Virus genome (UHGV): UHGV-0091736
DNA from: a virus
Reading direction: 5' to 3' (one strand)
DNA length: 64,000 nucleotides
The notes under the pieces were generated by a model, which was not told the DNA's origin, ran no database searches, and saw nothing but the letters and a program-made list of their open reading frames with translations. Below, piece after piece: positions 1 to 42,403 of this stretch (positions are counted from its first letter, which is position 1; the number at the start of each line of letters is the position of its first letter). A program made the position numbers and the translations under genes.

Positions 1-533
1 GCTTCGAGGGTTTCCCTGTTAACCCCCTACTCCCGCAGGATAGTCTCTACACTTTCCACTTTCGAATCCATCTACAAGCGATTCCAAAGCTCACACCAAA
101 CCTTTCTGCAAGAGCAACACCAGTGCATTCATTGTTAAGCCAGAACTCTTTAGCAGCATCCTGTCTTTCTCTATTTCTGCCAGTGTTTGATTCAATAGCA
201 TGTGCACTACCTTCTAAGATTTCTAGATGGTCAGTATTACAACAAGCTCTATTCTTGCATTTATGGTTAACTTCATAACCGTCAGGAATTTTTCCAAATT
301 CCTCTTCCATGACGTATCTGTGATACATGACCCATTTGCCATTTATCACTTTTCGAAAGTAACCGTCTTTATTTAATTTGTGTGAGATAGGGATGATACA
401 TCCTGTGCTAGTTGTTTCTAGCACTAGATCTTTCTTAGCCATATCACCTCCTAATAGCTTAGCTCGGTATTGCCCTCAACTTAATGGTCGGGTTTCACCG
501 AGTTCACCAACTTTTACATGCACAATGAAGTTT
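1..533 (-). mobile_element. Group I intron, 5' portion (3' end lies beyond window start), inserted in DNA polymerase motif C; hosts an HNH ORF
   Basis: Exon frame stops 9 codons after ..VIDMH. IGS GTGCAT (518-523, minus) pairs with exon end AUGCAU (534-539) with G.U at the splice site. R-like GUGUAGAGACUAUCC at 38-52. Collinear with the helicase intron, including a covarying helix (497-502/463-468). Confidence 0.7.
47..442 (-). CDS. HNH homing endonuclease (intron-encoded)
   Basis: 131 aa. Motif EVNHKCKNRACCNTDHLE. Located between the polymerase exon end and the intron R element. Confidence 0.85.
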   Translation of the reverse strand: MAKKDLVLETTSTGCIIPISHKLNKDGYFRKVINGKWVMYHRYVMEEEFGKIPDGYEVNHKCKNRACCNTDHLEILEGSAHAIESNTGRNRERQDAAKEFWLNNECTGVALAERFGVSFGIACRWIRKWKV

Positions 534-2225
534 ATGCATATCAATTACCTTAGCACAACGAACTCCATCCTTCTCAATCCACTTGTTAAGGAACATCATA
601 GCGTATTTCATAACAACAGCACCAGCACATTGCAGGAGTGTGTTAAGTGCTTTATGAACCATAACTTTACCAGTGGCATCTCGTCTCATTGTAATCTTGC
701 GACCATCAACACCAATCAAGTACCCTTGAGCAGCTTTCTCTGTCATGCGATCAATGAGGATTGCAATACATGGGTTCTCTGCCAAGAAACGTGCTCGCAT
801 CACTGAACCTTCATCAGCCCCGCCACCTACAATTGAACCAAGCTTAGCATCACCAGCACCATAGTTGAATGCATAGATAAATGTCTTAGCATTGTCACGA
901 GTAGGGAGACCAGCAAGTTTCTGGTTGTGGGAGTGGATATCCCCTTCGAGGAGAATATCACGATACATAATAGCAGAAGCTAAACCGCGTTCTGCCAGAG
1001 CTTTCTTAGCTGGATTATTCTCTTCGATTGCTTCAGCAAGCATATCTCTACATTCTTTGATGAGGTAGTGAGCGAGCATACGAAGTTCAAGTCCAGAACC
1101 ATCATACCCTAAGAATACTTCTTTACCAGCGGGTATGTAATATTTGTAAGCACCTACAGGTTTGTCTTTCTTCCCCGGCTTACCTTTCTCGTAAATTACG
1201 TTAGTACCTTTTCGTATATAACAACCATCAGGAACAACGTTAGTAATAACGAAAGGACGAGAGTGATCACTGTCTGAGTTATAGTCAGACTCAAACAAAC
1301 TGCGACACTCGTGACCAAACAAACCACGGGAGGGAATATTAACCACGATACGATGTTTGAATCGAAAAGTCGGCGTAGCGCAGCTGTTAGCTTCTGCCGA
1401 AAGTTTACCATCTTCGCGTTCCTTTGCTATAAGTCCACTGATAAGACCTAGCCTGTGAGCCGCTACAACACGTCTCTTAAGCAAACTTCCAACACTCCCT
1501 AGCTCACCCCCTAACCCTTCTTCAAGAGTCTCCTCGAGGTTTGTAGGAGCTGTAGGCCACTTGTTTGATGTAGCTAGTGCTTTCTTAATCTCATCAAACG
1601 TTACAGGGTTACGGCGATTAGGGTTTAATCCCAAACCAAACACGTAAGCCTTCATGTAATTCTTAGTCTTAAACCTAAAATGCTTTTCTAAGAATTTCTT
1701 GATATCAGCGTCAACCATCTCGGCTGTCTGCTTCTGCTTAGCACTGCCTCTCATCCAAGCAGTGTACCAAGCCTGATATGTTCCATACTTTCGCATGTCT
1801 TTCTTAATTTCGAAAGTATTCCAAGGCTTCTTAGATACGTTAAACTCTGGAGGAAGAAAGCCCTCATCCATAAGAGCTTCTTTAACTCGTGCATCTTTCG
1901 ATGGGTCAAAGTCTACATATTCTACACAGGTGAATGCTCCACCAATGTCTTCTCTCTTCAGCCCAACCCTATCACAATAAGCTTGAGGCCACTTCTGCAA
2001 AGCACCAGACTTCTTAAACGGCTTCATGTAAGTAGAGCCATCTAATCTCATCTTAGGTAAGAGAGGAATCAACTCTCTATCAATATTAACAATAATCTCT
2101 TTAAGGAGGTGAACATACCACCGAGCATTTCTTCGGTTGAAACTCACTCCGTGCTTTGCTTGCTTAGAGATTATATCAGCGACAGTCATCTCTGTCAAAA
2201 ATGGAAGAGCGTCCGGGTTGCTCAC
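534..2225 (-). CDS. DNA polymerase family A, polymerase domain, exon 1 (GTG start; ends at H of motif C HDE)
   Basis: Motif A LGYDGSGLELRMLAHY and motif B RDNAKTFIYAFNYGAG. AAGGAG RBS 7 nt before the GTG. ORF track 504-2225, trimmed to the predicted 5' splice site. Confidence 0.85.
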
Positions 2226-2241
2226 TTTATACTCCTTTGAA

Positions 2242-2646
2242 TTATTGGTAAAGTAAATCTGTAAATGCTTGGTTGTCAGTTATTGCATCTAGGTCATTAT
2301 GAGATACTCGGATAACATTACCTTCAACTCTCCACGGAGTTGGCGTAGGTGAAGACCTAACTTCAAGAGGCTGCTCTCTGACTAAATGGGCCATGACCCT
2401 CTGATTGGCAACTTCCTCTCTTTCTCGAATAGCTCTTTGGATGTAGGCCAGCTTCATGCCCCAAGCTTCTTCAAACTCTTGAGGATGTTTGTCACTGATA
2501 ACCACATACTGACGCTCAGGGATACCAGATCGAATCTCTGATAATAATTCATGGAACAAATCAAGTTCATGTTCAGTGAGATTCATTTCGATATCATCCC
2601 ACTTGAGAACTAAGAAACGGTTTTGATATCTAGTTGGTAATGGCAT
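2242..2646 (-). CDS. hypothetical protein (134 aa)
   Basis: ORF track; ATG start; tightly packed with neighbours. Confidence 0.6.
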   Translation of the reverse strand: MPLPTRYQNRFLVLKWDDIEMNLTEHELDLFHELLSEIRSGIPERQYVVISDKHPQEFEEAWGMKLAYIQRAIREREEVANQRVMAHLVREQPLEVRSSPTPTPWRVEGNVIRVSHNDLDAITDNQAFTDLLYQ

Positions 2647-2649
2647 AGC

Positions 2650-2934
2650 TTAACCTTTTGGGAATGGCATTAAAGACTCCATAGCAGATTTAATTTTGCT
2701 ATTGATTCGAGCATCTCTATAAGAGATAAACTTACCTTTGCTATCTCGTAACATCACATGAGTTCTGGCTGTTGTGTTAGGAAGTAATGTAATCCCAGTT
2801 GGGATATTGTCAACCCCCACAGGGAGTTTGTGAATAGTCTTACTTTCAGTTAATAGGTAAGACCAAGTAATTGGTTTACGATCTGTTCGATTAGGATATG
2901 TGTCTCGAATCTGAACCATAGCTAATTTATTCAT
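2650..2934 (-). CDS. hypothetical protein, paralog of 2936-3187
   Basis: Shares ARTxVxLRxxxGKFISY...PFPKG with the adjacent ORF. Confidence 0.6.
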   Translation of the reverse strand: MNKLAMVQIRDTYPNRTDRKPITWSYLLTESKTIHKLPVGVDNIPTGITLLPNTTARTHVMLRDSKGKFISYRDARINSKIKSAMESLMPFPKG

Positions 2935-2935
2935 A

Positions 2936-3187
2936 TTAAACTCCTTTAGGGAATGGGATGAGGTTTTCTACTGCAACACGAAAAGATTTTTCTACATTCT
3001 TATTCTTATAAGAAATGAATTTACCATCAGCACCACGAAGGATTACGTTAGTACGAGCTGTATTGGAAACTAAAGTGATCATAGAGATGGTGTTATTTTT
3101 TGAGTTGTTGTAGTTGTTATCGAAAGTCCACTTATCCAGACGATCATCCATTACATCAATAATAGTTACAGTTTTTACGATAGACAT
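2936..3187 (-). CDS. hypothetical protein, paralog of 2650-2934
   Basis: Same C-terminal motif (ARTNVILRGADGKFISY..IPFPKG). Confidence 0.6.
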   Translation of the reverse strand: MSIVKTVTIIDVMDDRLDKWTFDNNYNNSKNNTISMITLVSNTARTNVILRGADGKFISYKNKNVEKSFRVAVENLIPFPKGV

Positions 3188-3629: not shown

Positions 3630-5348
3630 TTAAGCTTTCTTTTCCATTGCTTTAACAATCGCCTTACAGAAACCAGAACGAACAATATCATCTGATTCAC
3701 CATCTACAATCTCAGCAAACTCATACAGATCATGTTCATCAATAAAGTTAGTAGCCCAAGTAAGACCACTCTCACGACCACGCATATCATGCTGGTTAGT
3801 ATCACCCATGCAGAACAGCTGAGAGGTTTCTCCCAATCGAGTCATGATTGAGAAGGCTTCATCTTTAGTTGTGTTCTGGAACTCATCCACGATAACAATG
3901 GCATCATTGAAAGAGCGACCACGGAGATATTCCAGAGGTACAAATTCAATGTTACCATTTCCGATTTGGCATTCATAGAACCCCTTACCATATCGCTGAG
4001 TAATAACATCAATGATAGGCATCAGGTATGGTTCAAACTTCTCACGCATCCCCCCCGGAAGTAACCCAAGAGAGTTACCCATGCCGACCGAAGGGCGACT
4101 CAGAATGATCTTCTGAATCTTACCACTCTTCAGTGCATCAATAACTGTGGAAGTGATTACAAAGGTCTTACCACAGTTACCTGTCACGAAAATGTTATCA
4201 TCTCGACGGAGCAACAGAGCACCTGTTGAGGTTGTAAAGCAATATTTAAAACCATCCTCCGTCTTCATCTTTGTGATCACAGCTTTCCCAGATTGTGGGT
4301 TGTTTGGGGTAATACTGATATGTGTCTGTTTAGAGAAATAAACACGATACTCTAGAGATTTACGAGTATATCCACCATACTCCCGACCAACTCTGTCGTA
4401 AGTTATGATAGATGATTTGTAACCACACTGCATTCCTACAAACTGGATATAGTCTGCATCATCTTTATCGGAAGTAAAGAAAGGTGGTAGTCTATTTCCT
4501 TGTAGGGCAAAACCCCCGTCCCAGAATTTAATCTCATCAAAGATGATTTTAGCATCACTCTTGTTACACAAAGGCCAGTCTTTATACCTTTTAGTCGCAC
4601 CTAGAAGAGAGAAAGATATTACATGAAACCCTGTATCATCTGACTTTTCTGAGTAATCTAAATGGAGAGTATCCAATAACTCTTTGAGTCGAGAAATCTT
4701 CCTCTCTTTCTTTAATCTGAAGACGAATCGCGAGGTGGACTCTGTTTCCAAGTGGGCATCAGCCTTGATGGCAACATGAAGACGTAATTCAGGTTCAGAT
4801 AGACCTAAACTTTTCCCTGAAACAAAGTTGGATGTAGTTTTAATTAGACCCTCAAACCCTATCTTCTTCTTGTGGTGCCTTGAAAGAAGATCAGATACCT
4901 TGATTTTGTTCGCTTTGTCTTTATCTCCCTTACGATAATAAACGACATTATGGTCATCACATAACGCCTGAGATATCCCACGGTATGTTTTAAACAAGTT
5001 CAACTCTTTACACTCTTGTTTAATATAAGCTACAGGTTTTTCTAAATGAGACTCTCCTGTGGTTAAGTTTACTGCTGTTATTAAATCACCTTCCACATAG
5101 TCAGAAATCTTTTTCCATCCAAACTCTGAGAGAAACTCGGTATCCTTATCAACACAGCCCGCAGGAGCGTCTGTGAACACAACTTGTTTAGTCTTAATAG
5201 CATTGAGTAGCTCAGACTGAAACTGGTTCTGAGGGACTACAGGCTTTGCTAAAACCACCTCTTCATACTCTCGCTTACCCTTACGAGTAACAAGTGCTTC
5301 CCGACGAAGGTCTTTCCGTGATTCTTTCCTTGATTGACGACGACTCAT
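3630..5348 (-). CDS. phoH: PhoH-like ATPase precursor containing an intein
   Basis: Walker A is split as ..DAPAG | intein | CGKTFV... The C-terminal part has ILSRP, LLPG, IVIVDEFQN (Walker B) and GD..Q, as in PhoH. Confidence 0.8.
   Translation of the reverse strand: MSRRQSRKESRKDLRREALVTRKGKREYEEVVLAKPVVPQNQFQSELLNAIKTKQVVFTDAPAGCVDKDTEFLSEFGWKKISDYVEGDLITAVNLTTGESHLEKPVAYIKQECKELNLFKTYRGISQALCDDHNVVYYRKGDKDKANKIKVSDLLSRHHKKKIGFEGLIKTTSNFVSGKSLGLSEPELRLHVAIKADAHLETESTSRFVFRLKKERKISRLKELLDTLHLDYSEKSDDTGFHVISFSLLGATKRYKDWPLCNKSDAKIIFDEIKFWDGGFALQGNRLPPFFTSDKDDADYIQFVGMQCGYKSSIITYDRVGREYGGYTRKSLEYRVYFSKQTHISITPNNPQSGKAVITKMKTEDGFKYCFTTSTGALLLRRDDNIFVTGNCGKTFVITSTVIDALKSGKIQKIILSRPSVGMGNSLGLLPGGMREKFEPYLMPIIDVITQRYGKGFYECQIGNGNIEFVPLEYLRGRSFNDAIVIVDEFQNTTKDEAFSIMTRLGETSQLFCMGDTNQHDMRGRESGLTWATNFIDEHDLYEFAEIVDGESDDIVRSGFCKAIVKAMEKKA
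4176..5156 (-). mobile_element. Intein (327 aa) in the PhoH P-loop, with degenerate LAGLIDADG-like endonuclease region
   Basis: Starts CVDKDTEFL (block A-like) and ends ..NIFVTGN followed by +1 Cys. Excision restores APAGCGKT. Candidate dodecapeptides are LHVAIKADAHL and FDEIKFWDGGF. Confidence 0.7.
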
Positions 5349-36333: not shown

Positions 36334-37206
36334 TTACTTATTAGCCTTAATGCAGTTGGCTAGATTAACGTGAACAGTATAAACAGCATTATCAGCGTTA
36401 TTATAAACGGTAGTGGCGATCATCGACTCCTTAACCGGACCATAACTCACTAGATTGGTTACAGCTTTAACGTCTTCATAACGTTGTACAGTACCAAATG
36501 TCACCATATCCGCATCATTATCAGTGCGCTTAAGCACCAAATCATTGTTAGGCTGATTATCTAGTGTTTTAGACTGAAAGAGAACGCCTTCATTTGTTAC
36601 GTTGCTAAACTTCATTTTTAAGACAATAGTATTGCCGTCACTATCCGCACCGTTGCAAATCATCCAACCTTTATTGATGGAACTAGAGAAGACACTAGCC
36701 GCATCAGTTGCAGGAGCAGGACTAGCAACAGCCTTATCAGAAAGAGATGTGACCAGTGCACTAACACCGATCGCTGCAACCAGTGCATAACTTGCCAGAT
36801 TAACAGACTTCATAATCTTACTTGCAACAGTAGGCTTGATTGGCTGTTTCTTGTTTTTCTTGTTCCATGCTTCAACCATGACAGACAAGCGGGATAATTC
36901 AGCTTTCACATCACGGCATGACTCAGGCCAATCTTTCTGATTCCAGCTATCTAAATTTGCTTGAATGTAGCAATTAATAGCGTCCTGCATATCGGTAAAA
37001 CCGTTCTCTTTGAACGTGCTTTCATCTTCACACTGTAAAGCGTTCGCAGTAGAGTTAATGATCAAGCAAGCCAGCATTACAGAGTTTTTGAATCCTTTAC
37101 GTGCACTTTCGTTTTCCATCCACGCATCAGGACTACCAACGGTTAAGCCTAAAGATGAAAGGTTTTCGTTTGCTTTGTTCAAGTGGTTAATTGCTACTTT
37201 AGACAT
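36334..37206 (-). CDS. hypothetical protein with central transmembrane helix (290 aa)
   Basis: ORF track. SYALVAAIGVSALVTSL hydrophobic stretch. First gene of the minus arm. Confidence 0.6.
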   Translation of the reverse strand: MSKVAINHLNKANENLSSLGLTVGSPDAWMENESARKGFKNSVMLACLIINSTANALQCEDESTFKENGFTDMQDAINCYIQANLDSWNQKDWPESCRDVKAELSRLSVMVEAWNKKNKKQPIKPTVASKIMKSVNLASYALVAAIGVSALVTSLSDKAVASPAPATDAASVFSSSINKGWMICNGADSDGNTIVLKMKFSNVTNEGVLFQSKTLDNQPNNDLVLKRTDNDADMVTFGTVQRYEDVKAVTNLVSYGPVKESMIATTVYNNADNAVYTVHVNLANCIKANK

Positions 37207-39544: not shown

Positions 39545-40018
39545 ATGTTTGGAGAAAACGGAGAACTCACGCCTGCACAGGTAGCTGAGATTACAGGAAG
39601 ATTACCCGGAGTAACGGAAGAACTTGAAGGCCGTGGTATGAACCCAAGCAATGGGAAGTTTCAAAAGGGGAATAAATTCGGACGACCCAAAGGTAGTAGA
39701 GGTAAACTGACACAATTAATGTTGGACCGTGTTGCTGCAAGTCATTTGTCTCCTGATGAAGTGTTAATTCAAATTTACGAAGATCCTAATATTCCACCTG
39801 ATCTTAGATTCAAGGCTGCATCAAAAGTTGCAGATCTGGTATATCCTAAGGCGGCCTCCGTTGAAGTTAAGATTGAGGAAGAGAATGTAATCAACGAAGA
39901 ATCATTGAATGCACAAATCAAGGACTTCTTGACTGGAGCACTTGGTATCGACGTTATGCCTCCAGAAGAAGACAACTCTGAGGACGCTGAAAAGGGGGAG
40001 GAAGCGGACGAGAGTTAA
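39545..40018 (+). CDS. putative small terminase subunit
   Basis: Located immediately upstream of terL. GNKFGRPKGSRGK basic motif, acidic tail. Confidence 0.45.
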   Translation: MFGENGELTPAQVAEITGRLPGVTEELEGRGMNPSNGKFQKGNKFGRPKGSRGKLTQLMLDRVAASHLSPDEVLIQIYEDPNIPPDLRFKAASKVADLVYPKAASVEVKIEEENVINEESLNAQIKDFLTGALGIDVMPPEEDNSEDAEKGEEADES

Positions 40019-40087
40019 GTAAAGGAAAGAAGGGGAGGTTCTTTGACGAAGGGACTTTCCCTTTTCTATTTTTAAACTGGAGGAAGT

Positions 40088-40690
40088 ATGTCACTAGATA
40101 AACAAATTTATGAAGCTCTAACTGGTAACAATCTTAGTGTAGATGAAAAGAAAGCACTATTGAATATGTTGAAAGAGCGTGACCAATGGAGGAAGTATAA
40201 TAGGATTTTGTCTTTCAAGGCGTATGACTTCCAAAAGAAATTTTATGCAGCAGGATTGAAGCATAGGTTCAGGTTTCTCTGTGCGGCTAACCGAGTTGGG
40301 AAAAGTTACAGTGAAGCGTACGAATTCGCATGCCACGTTACCGGAAGATATCCAACATGGTGGACCGGTCATAAGTTTAAGAGGCCAATACTTGCGTGGG
40401 CTGTAGGGATTACAGGGGACTCAACAAGGAAAGTATTGCAAAAAGAATTATTTGGTACACCAATTGGAAAGGACACTAATCTGCTAGGTACTGGAGTTAT
40501 TCCACGAGATGCAATAGTAATAGATACTATAGAAAGGGATGGTAATAAGCTACAGATAGTACAGATTAAGCACCAGAATGAAAGGGGTGAGTTTGATGGA
40601 TTAAGTACGTTAGAATTTCGATCAACACAACAGGGTGAACATACACTGATGGGTGCTACTGTTGATTATATATGGCTGGATGAAGAGGAT
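40088..40690 (+). CDS. terL: terminase large subunit, exon 1 (ATPase through Walker B)
   Basis: CAANRVGKS (Walker A-like) and VDYIWLDEED (Walker B). The ORF then stops after 2 more codons. Confidence 0.8.
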
Positions 40691-40784
40691 TGTATATAAC
40701 ATAGCTAGAAGTGTTGGTCCTCTATAAACTCGGTGAATTGCTGGAACCTCTGACCCTTAAGTGGAAGACAATCAGCAGCGAAGA

Positions 40785-40793
40785 TAATGTATA
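40785..40793 (+). promoter_or_regulatory. TAATGTATA promoter-like element inside the terL intron, upstream of the HNH ORF
   Basis: Exact consensus, 85 nt before the 40878 start. Confidence 0.45.
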
Positions 40794-40877
40794 ACTTACT
40801 CATGATACATTATAACGTTCAACGACTATCGAAAGCATAGCCCGTATGGGTGAAGAAGCAAGTAGAGTAGATACCAA

Positions 40878-41456
40878 GTGGTATCGAAGTGCCGAGCAAA
40901 ACTAAGGAGTGATACATTGGGTAGACCTAACAAATCATTAGATTCAACCAAAACATGTTCAGTGTGCTCTGTAACAAAAGACATAGAATCTTTTGCAATA
41001 AGAACAAGAGCAATATCCACTGGAGAGGTTAGAATCTACCGTAAGTCTCAATGCAAAGAGTGCATGGCTGAGATGAGAAGGGATTGGGGTAAGAATAATC
41101 CAGATAAGATTCGTGAGAATAATAATTCTCCAAATAAGAGAGCTTGCGATAATGCAAGACGGGCTGGATTAGAAACTGCTTCTATTATCAGAGATGATGA
41201 GTATAATAAATTTGTTATGGAAGAAATGTATGAACTTCGAAATCTTAGAACAAAGGAAACTGGATTTCAATGGCATGTAGATCACATAATCCCTTTAAAA
41301 GGTAATAACGTATGTGGTTTTCATGTCTGGTATAACTTGCAGGTAGTTCCTGCTGTTTTCAACCTATCTAAGAGTAATAGTTTTGATGATATAGTCTGCT
41401 CTGCATGGAAACATGCAGCTGGAGAAATCCGGGATGAGATTAACGATCTTGTCTGA
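40878..41456 (+). CDS. HNH homing endonuclease (intron-encoded)
   Basis: [37 protein letters not shown]-terminal Cys pairs CSVC..CKEC. Confidence 0.85.
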
Positions 41457-41464
41457 ACAACACG

Positions 41465-42403
41465 CCATATGAGTCTATGGCTATATTCGCACAGTGCGTC
41501 ACACGTACACTCACAACTAAAGGTCTAGTTACAATTACAGCTACACCAGAGAACGGTTTAACTGAACTGGTAGATAAATTTATGAAAGGTGAAGGGGATG
41601 AGAACACAGGTTCTCTATATTTCCAGAATGCTTCTTGGTGGGATGCTCATGCAGACCTAGGTGGACATATCACTGACCAAGATATAAAAGATATGACTGA
41701 AGGTATTCCAGCGTGGCAGTTAGAGATGCGTTCGAAAGGTATGCCATTGTTAGGAAGTGGTTTGATATATGATGTATCGGATGACACAATTAAATGTGAA
41801 CCATTCGAAATTCCTGATACGTGGAAACGTGTCTGTGCAATTGATATTGGTATTGATCACCCAACTGCTGCTGTTTGGACAGCTTACGATGCAAACACGG
41901 ATACTGTCTATGTTTACGACTCATATAAAGAAGGTGGCTTTACTCCAGTGTATCATGCTCCAGCTATTAATGGTCGTGGTCAGTGGATTCCTGTCATCCT
42001 ACCGCATGATGCGGACAATATTGAGAAAGGTAGTGGATCATCTGTTGCTCAATTCTATAAGAATGCAGGAGTTAATGTACAGAGTGAGACCTTCTACAAC
42101 AAAATTGGAATGGATGGTAAAAAGAACTTCTTTGTAGAACCCGGAATCACAGATATCCGAGAAAGAATGATGAGTGGACGCTTTAAAATCTTTAACACAG
42201 CTGCTAACGCTAAGCTATTCGAAGAGAAAGCTAGATATCACCGCAAGGTTGGTAAGATTATTAAAGAACATGATGACTTAATGGATGCAATGCGCTATTC
42301 AGCGTGCTCTGTTACACATCGTGGTCGCTCTAAGCATGACGTTAGCTACGGAAGTGCTTCTCTGTATGAGGCAAACGTAAGCAGATGGAATCAGAGTTAC
42401 TAA
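41465..42403 (+). CDS. terL: terminase large subunit, exon 2 (ATPase C-motif and nuclease domain)
   Basis: ..TRTLTTKGLVTITATPENG.. (coupling motif) and CAIDIGIDHP.. (RNase H-like nuclease). Confidence 0.8.
   Translation, partial: PYESMAIFAQCVTRTLTTKGLVTITATPENGLTELVDKFMKGEGDENTGSLYFQNASWWDAHADLGGHITDQDIKDMTEGIPAWQLEMRSKGMPLLGSGLIYDVSDDTIKCEPFEIPDTWKRVCAIDIGIDHPTAAVWTAYDANTDTVYVYDSYKEGGFTPVYHAPAINGRGQWIPVILPHDADNIEKGSGSSVAQFYKNAGVNVQSETFYNKIGMDGKKNFFVEPGITDIRERMMSGRFKIFNTAANAKLFEEKARYHRKVGKIIKEHDDLMDAMRYSACSVTHRGRSKHDVSYGSASLYEANVSRWNQSY

Follow-up and report, generated by a model that had tools for sequence, protein, structure and literature searches.

Known introns in phage polymerase genes

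The introns in the polymerase genes of phages PhiI and W31 (Bonocora & Shub 2004) are inserted at site 881 of E. coli Pol I, belong to subgroup IA2 of the group I introns, and carry an open reading frame (ORF) for an HNH protein in P6a (PMC3428280); splicing has been reported for the PhiI and W31 homologues (PMC3428280). An insert of this kind interrupts the family A DNA polymerase gene at the start of UHGV-0091736, a stretch of viral DNA of 64,000 nt (hereafter the window, to which all unattributed positions refer). The region stems from a Kuravirus-like coliphage (phiEco32-like, Gordonclarkvirinae) and shares 95–97% identity with Kuravirus coliphages. With a probability of about 0.93, the interruption is best explained as a mobile, self-splicing group I intron of subgroup IA2 that separates the codons for the His and Asp of motif C (H|DE, Pol I site 881) and houses an HNH homing endonuclease gene in its P6a loop. 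In E. coli Pol I, motif C consists of His881-Asp882-Glu883. The element is real but an ordinary further example of a type known since 2004 in T7-like phages.

The resemblance to the gene 5 introns of T7-like phages (PhiI, W31, I-TslI; 13a, K1F) concerns both position and architecture. All of them, including the intron in the window, are inserted after His881 and before Asp882, lack a P2 helix but possess both P7.1 and P7.2, hold their ORF in P6a with the end of the ORF running over P6 and J6/7, and use the P10 guide UCAUU. In 13a and K1F, the coding sequence (CDS) of the polymerase is annotated as joined around the HNH gene, with the boundary ..GCATGGGTGCAT|AAAC...G|GATGAG... The T7-like intron copies found by blastn are 65–69% identical over 95% of the query, and the ribozyme core shows a mean column identity of 71% over 12 copies. 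The HNH protein of the window shows 54–63% identity to the HNH proteins encoded by the introns of 13a, K1F, WAG25P1 (an Edwardsiella phage), and Vp_R1 (a Vibrio phage), the values for the gene 5 introns of T7-like phages being 54–59%; an identical codon boundary and architecture recur in these four phages and in several IMG/VR contigs. In Vp_R1 (NC_070978; 112 kb, Grimontviridae), the intron occupies positions 1578..2193 of the phage sequence and splits ..VIMMH|DEFQF..; exon 2 is missing from the annotation of the RefSeq record, which lists a truncated polymerase and an HNH gene.

Unlike the T7-like introns, the intron in the window resides in a distant family A polymerase of the Gordonclarkvirinae, whose exonucleases are encoded separately (PMC9965538). 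Its guide is GUGCAU instead of GUGCAC, matching an exon with the Met codon AUG in place of the Val codon GUG, and it has an extra P5a hairpin in P5 and a shorter P7.2. In the literature on phiEco32-like, Kuravirus, and Gordonclarkvirinae phages, no mention of an intron was found.

Other described systems are less similar. The introns of SPO1, SP82, and Bastille (I-HmuI, I-HmuII, I-BasI) and of cyanophage Pf-WMP3 (I-PfoP3I) are also group I introns with HNH endonucleases in family A polymerase genes, and they, too, target a conserved functional motif (PMC3428280). However, they lie at Pol I site 674 (fingers) and not at site 881, and their endonucleases are not close relatives of the one in the window; in SPO1, the ORF is located in P8 rather than in P6a. 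The T4 td intron with I-TevI shares the IA2 subgroup, an ORF that is looped out from P6 and whose 3' end doubles as core RNA (PMC3073962), and an early in-frame stop of the exon frame inside the intron. By contrast, its host gene encodes thymidylate synthase and its endonuclease is of the GIY-YIG type, and the ORFs are unrelated in sequence.

Exon boundaries and fold of the intron RNA

All features of the polymerase locus are on the minus strand. The ORF at 504..2225 encodes the N-terminal 564 residues of the polymerase followed by nine codons of the intron (573 aa in total); exon 1, as derived from the ORF list and the sequence, comprises 564 codons (534..2225). The features on which the original prediction was based are present in this ORF: motif A (DGSGLELR, 1103..1080), motif B (KTFIYAFNYG, 887..858), and an end that reads ..AKVIDMH and then KLHCACKSW before the stop codon. 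The likeness to polymerases ceases after the His of the H-D-E triad, whose codon CAU is the last of exon 1 and ends at 534, and the exon frame is closed nine codons into the intron by a UGA (506..504) that overlaps the end of P3.

Phage 1-6bf, the closest relative, was used for the end of the intron and for exon 2; in the shared part of the intron, it matches the window at 97.9% identity, and in the shared part of the noncoding core the two are identical. Its interruption is 607 nt long and ends in G (..AUAACAUAAAUG; ..AUAAAUG), followed by GAUGAGGGC, which encodes DEGQFS; exon 2 thus opens in frame with the Asp and Glu codons (GAU GAG GGC CAG..). The window holds intron bases 1–533; past its position 1, the intron continues for 74 nt and is followed by exon 2. 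The expectation that exon 2 would be located just past this end is borne out by 1-6bf, although it begins 75 nt beyond position 1 and not at the predicted distance of 100–200 nt. The S box, the terminal G, and the in-frame D-E start that had been anticipated for the flanking sequence are all found there. After removal of the intron, the expected junction is ..GAUAUGCAU|GAUGAGGGC.. (..AUG CAU|GAU GAG..).

The alignment to intron-less homologues suggested in the original prediction leads to the same boundary. Phage ES17 encodes one uninterrupted polymerase of 614 aa, which reads ..VIDMH|DEGQF.. across the junction (DNA ..ATGCAC|GACGAGGGC.., with the codons GTA ATT GAT ATG CAC|GAC GAG GGC CAG). 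When exon 1 of the window is joined to exon 2 of 1-6bf, the product is likewise 614 aa long and differs from the ES17 polymerase in 2 of 614 residues. It matches Pfam DNA_pol_A (E=3.4e-23), and T7 DNA polymerase aligns with it from motif B over HDE to the C-terminal His (E=2e-29), with ..vidmHDEgqf.. opposite ..mawvHDEiqv.. of the T7 enzyme. Unspliced RNA would give a polymerase devoid of both acidic residues of motif C (Asp and Glu) and of its last 50 residues; splicing would be needed for a working enzyme because the unspliced product lacks one of the two catalytic carboxylates.

The distribution of the intron is patchy. Most relatives are intron-less and match the window only as far as base 535, whereas a minority (1-6bf, 1-6af, FH3, PE006, pEC-N1203-2Af.1, PAS59, SU7, and ECBP2) matches through bases 1–533. 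Among the Gordonclarkvirinae records, about 100 are uninterrupted at the junction and 11, representing eight phages, contain the intron. The exons of intron-bearing genes read CAU|GAU without exception, in keeping with the requirements of P1 and P10, whereas those of intron-less alleles are variously CAC GAC, CAC GAT, or CAT GAT. The exact sequence ..ATGCAT|GATGA.. occurs in three of the seven intron-less alleles examined, which means that ready-made target sites exist. It also led us to reject the notion that synonymous changes (CAC GAC) immunize the target, since these three alleles read CAT GAT. No co-conversion tract is visible beside the polymerase intron, and the intron-less relatives are about 96% identical to the window up to the junction.

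The fold of the intron RNA was studied in an alignment of 12 distinct copies, from which the ORFs had been removed, from three phage families: four Kuravirus/Suseptimavirus phages, 13a, K1F, WAG25P1, and five IMG/VR contigs, which were found by a conserved 15-mer. The structure was drawn by hand and checked against the homologues. In the window, P3 and P7 are represented by their 5' strands; the full P3–P8 core and the P3/P7 pseudoknot were read in 1-6bf.

Immediately after U534, the minus-strand RNA reads AAACUUCAUUGUGCAUGUAAAA. The guide pairing that the original prediction interpreted as P1 holds: AUGCAU (539..534) and GUGCAU (523..518) form 6 bp, the one at the splice site being a U.G wobble, and the pairing co-varies with the exon across phage families. 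In the 12 copies, 95.8% of the P1 cells are paired. The distal pair is GC in seven copies, AU in four, and GU in one; it is A-U in the Kuravirus-like copies, whose exon has AUG (Met), and G-C in the T7-like copies, whose exon has GUG (Val), indicating that the guide sequence has tracked the host exon. The internal guide sequence (528..518) consists of this 3' strand of P1 and the preceding UCAUU (528..524), which pairs with GAUGA of exon 2 (taken from 1-6bf) to form P10 (96.7% of the cells paired in the 12 copies).

The 5' half of the ribozyme core (511..455) comprises the 5' strand of P3 (GUUGGUG, 511..505), P4 (CUCGGU, 502..497, with ACCGAG, 468..463), P5 with the extra P5a hairpin (492..473), and the 5' strands of P6 and P6a. 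The latter (462..455) pair with 58..52 and close the ORF loop. The 3' half of the core starts at the same position (58..1, from P6a' and P6' to the first base of P3') and continues with J6/7 and the 5' strand of P7 (UGUAGA-GACUAU, 51..40; P7 strand GACUAU, 45..40), P7.1 (CC-UGCG-GG, 39..32; paired in 12/12 copies), the linker AGUA (31..28), with G-U-A between P7.1 and P7.2, and P7.2 (GGGGGUU/AACCCUC, 27..6), followed by GAAG and, at position 1, the first base of the 3' strand of P3 (CGCCAAC). The original prediction had placed the stop codon of the HNH ORF over an R-like box, and the UAG (49..47) indeed lies within GUGUAGAGACUAUCC (52..38); the box itself, however, corresponds to J6/7 and the 5' strand of P7.

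The remaining elements lie outside the window and are present in 1-6bf: the rest of P3', P8 (AACAGCA/UGCUGUU), the S box GAUAUAGUCC, which pairs with the R box strand in P7 (GACUAU/AUAGUC), P9 (CCCGAA-GUAA-UUUGGG), and the terminal G, in which 13 of 13 copies examined end. The intron belongs to subgroup IA2, the mark of which is the presence of P7.1 and P7.2 between P7 and P3'.

The 12 copies support the fold. Standard pairs are formed in 97.4% of 642 cells, as opposed to 34–44% when the partners are slid by 1–3 columns. Changes on both sides occur in 16 of the 56 pairs, mostly in P3, P5, P8, and P9, and the observed covariation score is not attained in any of 500 shuffles; P7 is uninformative in this respect because it is invariant. 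The folding energy of the core without ORF is lower than that of shuffled sequences (z=-3.3), and the minimum-energy structure contains P1, P3, P4, P5, P7.2, P8, and P9. Between the Kuravirus and Suseptimavirus copies, the ribozyme segments are 96–100% identical, which exceeds the values for both the exons (72–80%) and the HNH ORF (79–88%). The RNA is therefore more constrained than the coding sequence, as expected if folding and splicing are required.

Proposed splicing and homing, and the alternatives

Several points weigh against a spliced intron. For the final 74 nt of the intron and for exon 2, the sequence comes from relatives that are 97–98% identical over the shared part, and both splicing and the activity of the HNH endonuclease in the phage of the window are predicted by analogy with group I introns and the PhiI and W31 homologues. 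The general Rfam model for group I introns (RF00028) stays below its gathering score of 50 bits both for the window (11.7 bits) and for the full-length intron of the relative (26.2 bits). Finally, 6 of 6 Kuravirus/Suseptimavirus copies end in ..AAUG|GAUGA, in which the last three bases of the intron make up an AUG in frame with exon 2; gene callers have an ORF of 51 aa start with this AUG.

The last point, together with public (GenBank) records of related phages in which three separate CDSs are annotated at the locus, one of them with a predicted ribosome-binding site, could also be taken to indicate that the polymerase is truly split. The HNH gene and its flanks would then be a non-splicing insertion, and the enzyme would consist of a chain of 573 aa with a nine-residue intron-coded tail and another of 51 aa. 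This is very improbable. The AUG is not present in the copies at the same site in 13a, K1F, Vp_R1, and three further sequences (L018, L024, and L037), which end in ..AAG. The noncoding flanks are the best-conserved part of the locus (96–100%), and their compensatory changes maintain a group I fold, which a plain insertion would have no reason to do. Moreover, the H and the D-E of a single catalytic motif would come to lie on different chains. If the in-frame AUG were nevertheless used in a splicing intron, unspliced RNA would yield a 51-aa fragment that might complement the 573-aa fragment, with motif C shared between the two, and the intron would act as a tunable switch; we regard this, too, as a long shot.

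The low scores obtained with RF00028 could speak for a decayed intron that no longer splices, in a polymerase pseudogene whose role in replication has been taken over by another polymerase. In the window, the model does not match anywhere at its gathering threshold; the intron fragment yields 11.7 bits at E=3.2, and the 26.2 bits of the 1-6bf intron are obtained for its 3' half (E=1.7e-4). However, annotated bona fide relatives also remain below 50 bits (13a, 37.9; K1F, 35.7; Vp_R1 likewise within 35–38), and the shortfall carries little weight for this reason: the threshold has no discriminating power for IA2 introns with an ORF. The two exons, both intact, deviate from the intron-less polymerase in only the two residues mentioned above; no core helix is broken, and the core is more tightly constrained than the coding sequence. 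In addition, the carriers (1-6bf, SU7, ECBP2, PAS59, and others) have been deposited as complete genomes of named isolates with E. coli as recorded hosts and are therefore taken to be propagated. A decayed intron is accordingly an even less probable explanation than a split polymerase.

A more specific covariance model (R1), for which only the 5' domain of the eight copies from outside the kuraviruses was used, matches the window at 455..542(-) with 79 bits (E ~9e-16). By themselves, the features of the window, namely the guide pairing, the HNH ORF, and the R-like box, would not be statistically compelling; with one mismatch allowed, the R-like box occurs 11 times in the window, compared with 10.5 expected occurrences. 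In combination with the relatives, they are decisive. Each sequence feature named in the original prediction is present as described, and its claim that a group I intron splits the polymerase inside motif C is supported by the relatives, by covariation, and by the match to model R1. Direct support exists for the anatomy of the locus, the exact boundaries, the colinearity with intron-less alleles, the homology to the T7-like introns, and, in the form of covariation, for the fold.

That the interruption might instead be an intein or a group II intron is hardly conceivable. All that speaks for such elements is that a conserved catalytic motif is interrupted and that the PhoH gene of the same genome has an intein-like insert. 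The frame of exon 1, however, runs into the UGA (506..504) after nine codons of the insert, and a separate start serves the HNH ORF; the insert can therefore not be removed at the protein level, which excludes an intein. The boundaries (U|...G|) and the helices P1–P10 are of the group I type, and a reverse-transcriptase ORF is absent.

If the interruption is a group I intron, the polymerase gene would be transcribed as one pre-mRNA, in which the guide pairs with the last six bases of exon 1 to form P1, the splice site being marked by U.G. A free guanosine held in P7 would attack after U534, and the guide would then align exon 2 via P10, allowing the 3'-OH of exon 1 to attack after the terminal G. 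The product would read ..AUG CAU|GAU GAG.., and ligation would restore a single 614-aa polymerase with an intact H-D-E triad. The HNH protein would be made separately from its own Shine-Dalgarno sequence and AUG. In mixed infections, it would be expected to introduce a cut or nick into intron-less alleles of the polymerase gene, close to the insertion site, and repair of the cut allele would copy the intron into the intron-less gene.

The HNH ORF postulated in the original prediction is located at 442..47 in the P6a loop. It encodes a protein of 131 aa, is preceded by the Shine-Dalgarno sequence AGGAGG (452..447), and matches Pfam HNH_3 (E=2.9e-12) at residues 40–76, which contain the catalytic motif (..EVNHKCKNRACCNTDHLE..). 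Its final codons (W K V stop) also serve as P6a', P6', and J6/7. A search of PDB sequences with the HNH protein gave no useful match. A hairpin that hides the ribosome-binding site or start of the HNH ORF, as in the case of I-TevI, was considered because AGCUAU and AUGGCU could pair in the window; it was dropped, as the consensus fold of six homologues (-0.5 kcal/mol) is essentially without support.

Homologues of the HNH protein also occur as free-standing genes directly downstream of uninterrupted polymerase genes, in which VHDE is read through. In Vibrio phage CHOED, such a gene (2471..3130 of the phage sequence; 50% identical) is located directly downstream of the polymerase gene. In T3, it is gene 5.3 (46% identity over 64% of the query), reportedly F-TslI. 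Free-standing HNH genes beside an intron-less target have reportedly been proposed, by Bonocora and Shub in 2009, as precursors of mobile introns.

Further inserts in the window and scope of the lineage

Model R1 detects two more introns of the same structural family in the window. One of them (11935..12554, minus strand; 620 nt; 53.9 bits, E ~5e-10) interrupts the primase/helicase gene (exon 1, 12555..14090; exon 2, 11680..11934) after ..FTGSRSLMR|, with AUGCGU/GCGCAU as P1. The split site presumably corresponds to helicase motif 4 of T7 gp4, judging from an alignment by eye. The intron contains an HNH ORF of 111 aa (12113..12448; Pfam HNH_3, E=9e-9) closed by a P6a of 14 bp, an R box (~12107..12098), an S box (12014..12006), and the terminal G (11935). 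ES17 is intron-less at exactly this site, and the spliced protein is identical to that of ES17 in 595 of 596 residues.

The other intron (40691..41464, plus strand; 774 nt) interrupts the gene of the large terminase (exon 1, 40088..40690; exon 2, 41465..42403) just past Walker B (..DYIWLDEED|PYESMAIF..), with GAGGAU/GUCCUC as P1. Its ORF (~40917..41456) is situated in a loop closed by P8 (CAAAACUA/UAGUUUUG) and continues through P7' and P9; an HNH-like motif is recognizable by eye, but a Pfam HNH domain was not matched. Once spliced, the terminase gene is as long as its counterpart in 1-6bf (1542 nt) and colinear with it. Over ~420 nt upstream of the insertion site, the DNA is 72–83% identical while the protein is almost unchanged, whereas the rest of the gene is 95–100% identical. 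This tract looks like the signature of co-conversion from a divergent donor and therefore of recent homing. Neither the primase/helicase intron nor the terminase intron has a full-length match in 50,697 phage records.

Pieces of the helicase intron are scattered among related phages. In O18-011 (2099..2717), an intron-less helicase gene is followed by a free-standing HNH gene, with the pieces immediately downstream of the latter, and in KBNP1711 (39814..40494), Bas89, and LAMP (36991..37194) they are located in or beside the polymerase gene but not at motif C. Their distribution suggests that Kuravirus-like phages have further intron sites. Related IA2-like cores are also present elsewhere: in Aeromonas phage phiA047 (122 kb; ~2501..2559), in a split large terminase gene with an HNH ORF, and in an uncultured IMG/VR contig (L025, 93 kb; ~479..700), between two ORFs and without an ORF of its own.

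An insert of a different kind is found in the PhoH-like ORF (3630..5348, minus strand), where 327 aa in frame (4176..5156) are placed exactly in the Walker A loop (..DAPAG|CVDKDTEF...NIFVTGN|CGKTFV..). It appears intein-like in that it starts with Cys and ends with Asn and is followed by Cys; 1-6bf, with an otherwise identical PhoH, lacks it. Searches of the insert against Pfam and PDB sequences gave no intein, Hint, or endonuclease match. Full-length relatives of the insert (23–45% identity) are located inside PhoH, primase/helicase, terminase, and ribonucleotide reductase genes of other phages.

The polymerase intron alters nothing that is known about group I introns. It documents one intron lineage at one codon boundary in the polymerases of Autographiviridae, Gordonclarkvirinae, and Grimontviridae, with the guide retuned to each exon. 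The presence of a single lineage in otherwise very different polymerases is probably explained by its target, TGCAYGAYGAR, since this sequence is dictated by the catalytic H-D-E; the locus is a clean example of a homing element that has landed in a catalytic motif that cannot mutate away. Such phages are under development for therapeutic use and as model collections, for which correct gene models are useful, and phage work would benefit from an awareness that mobile endonucleases may bias inheritance in mixed infections.

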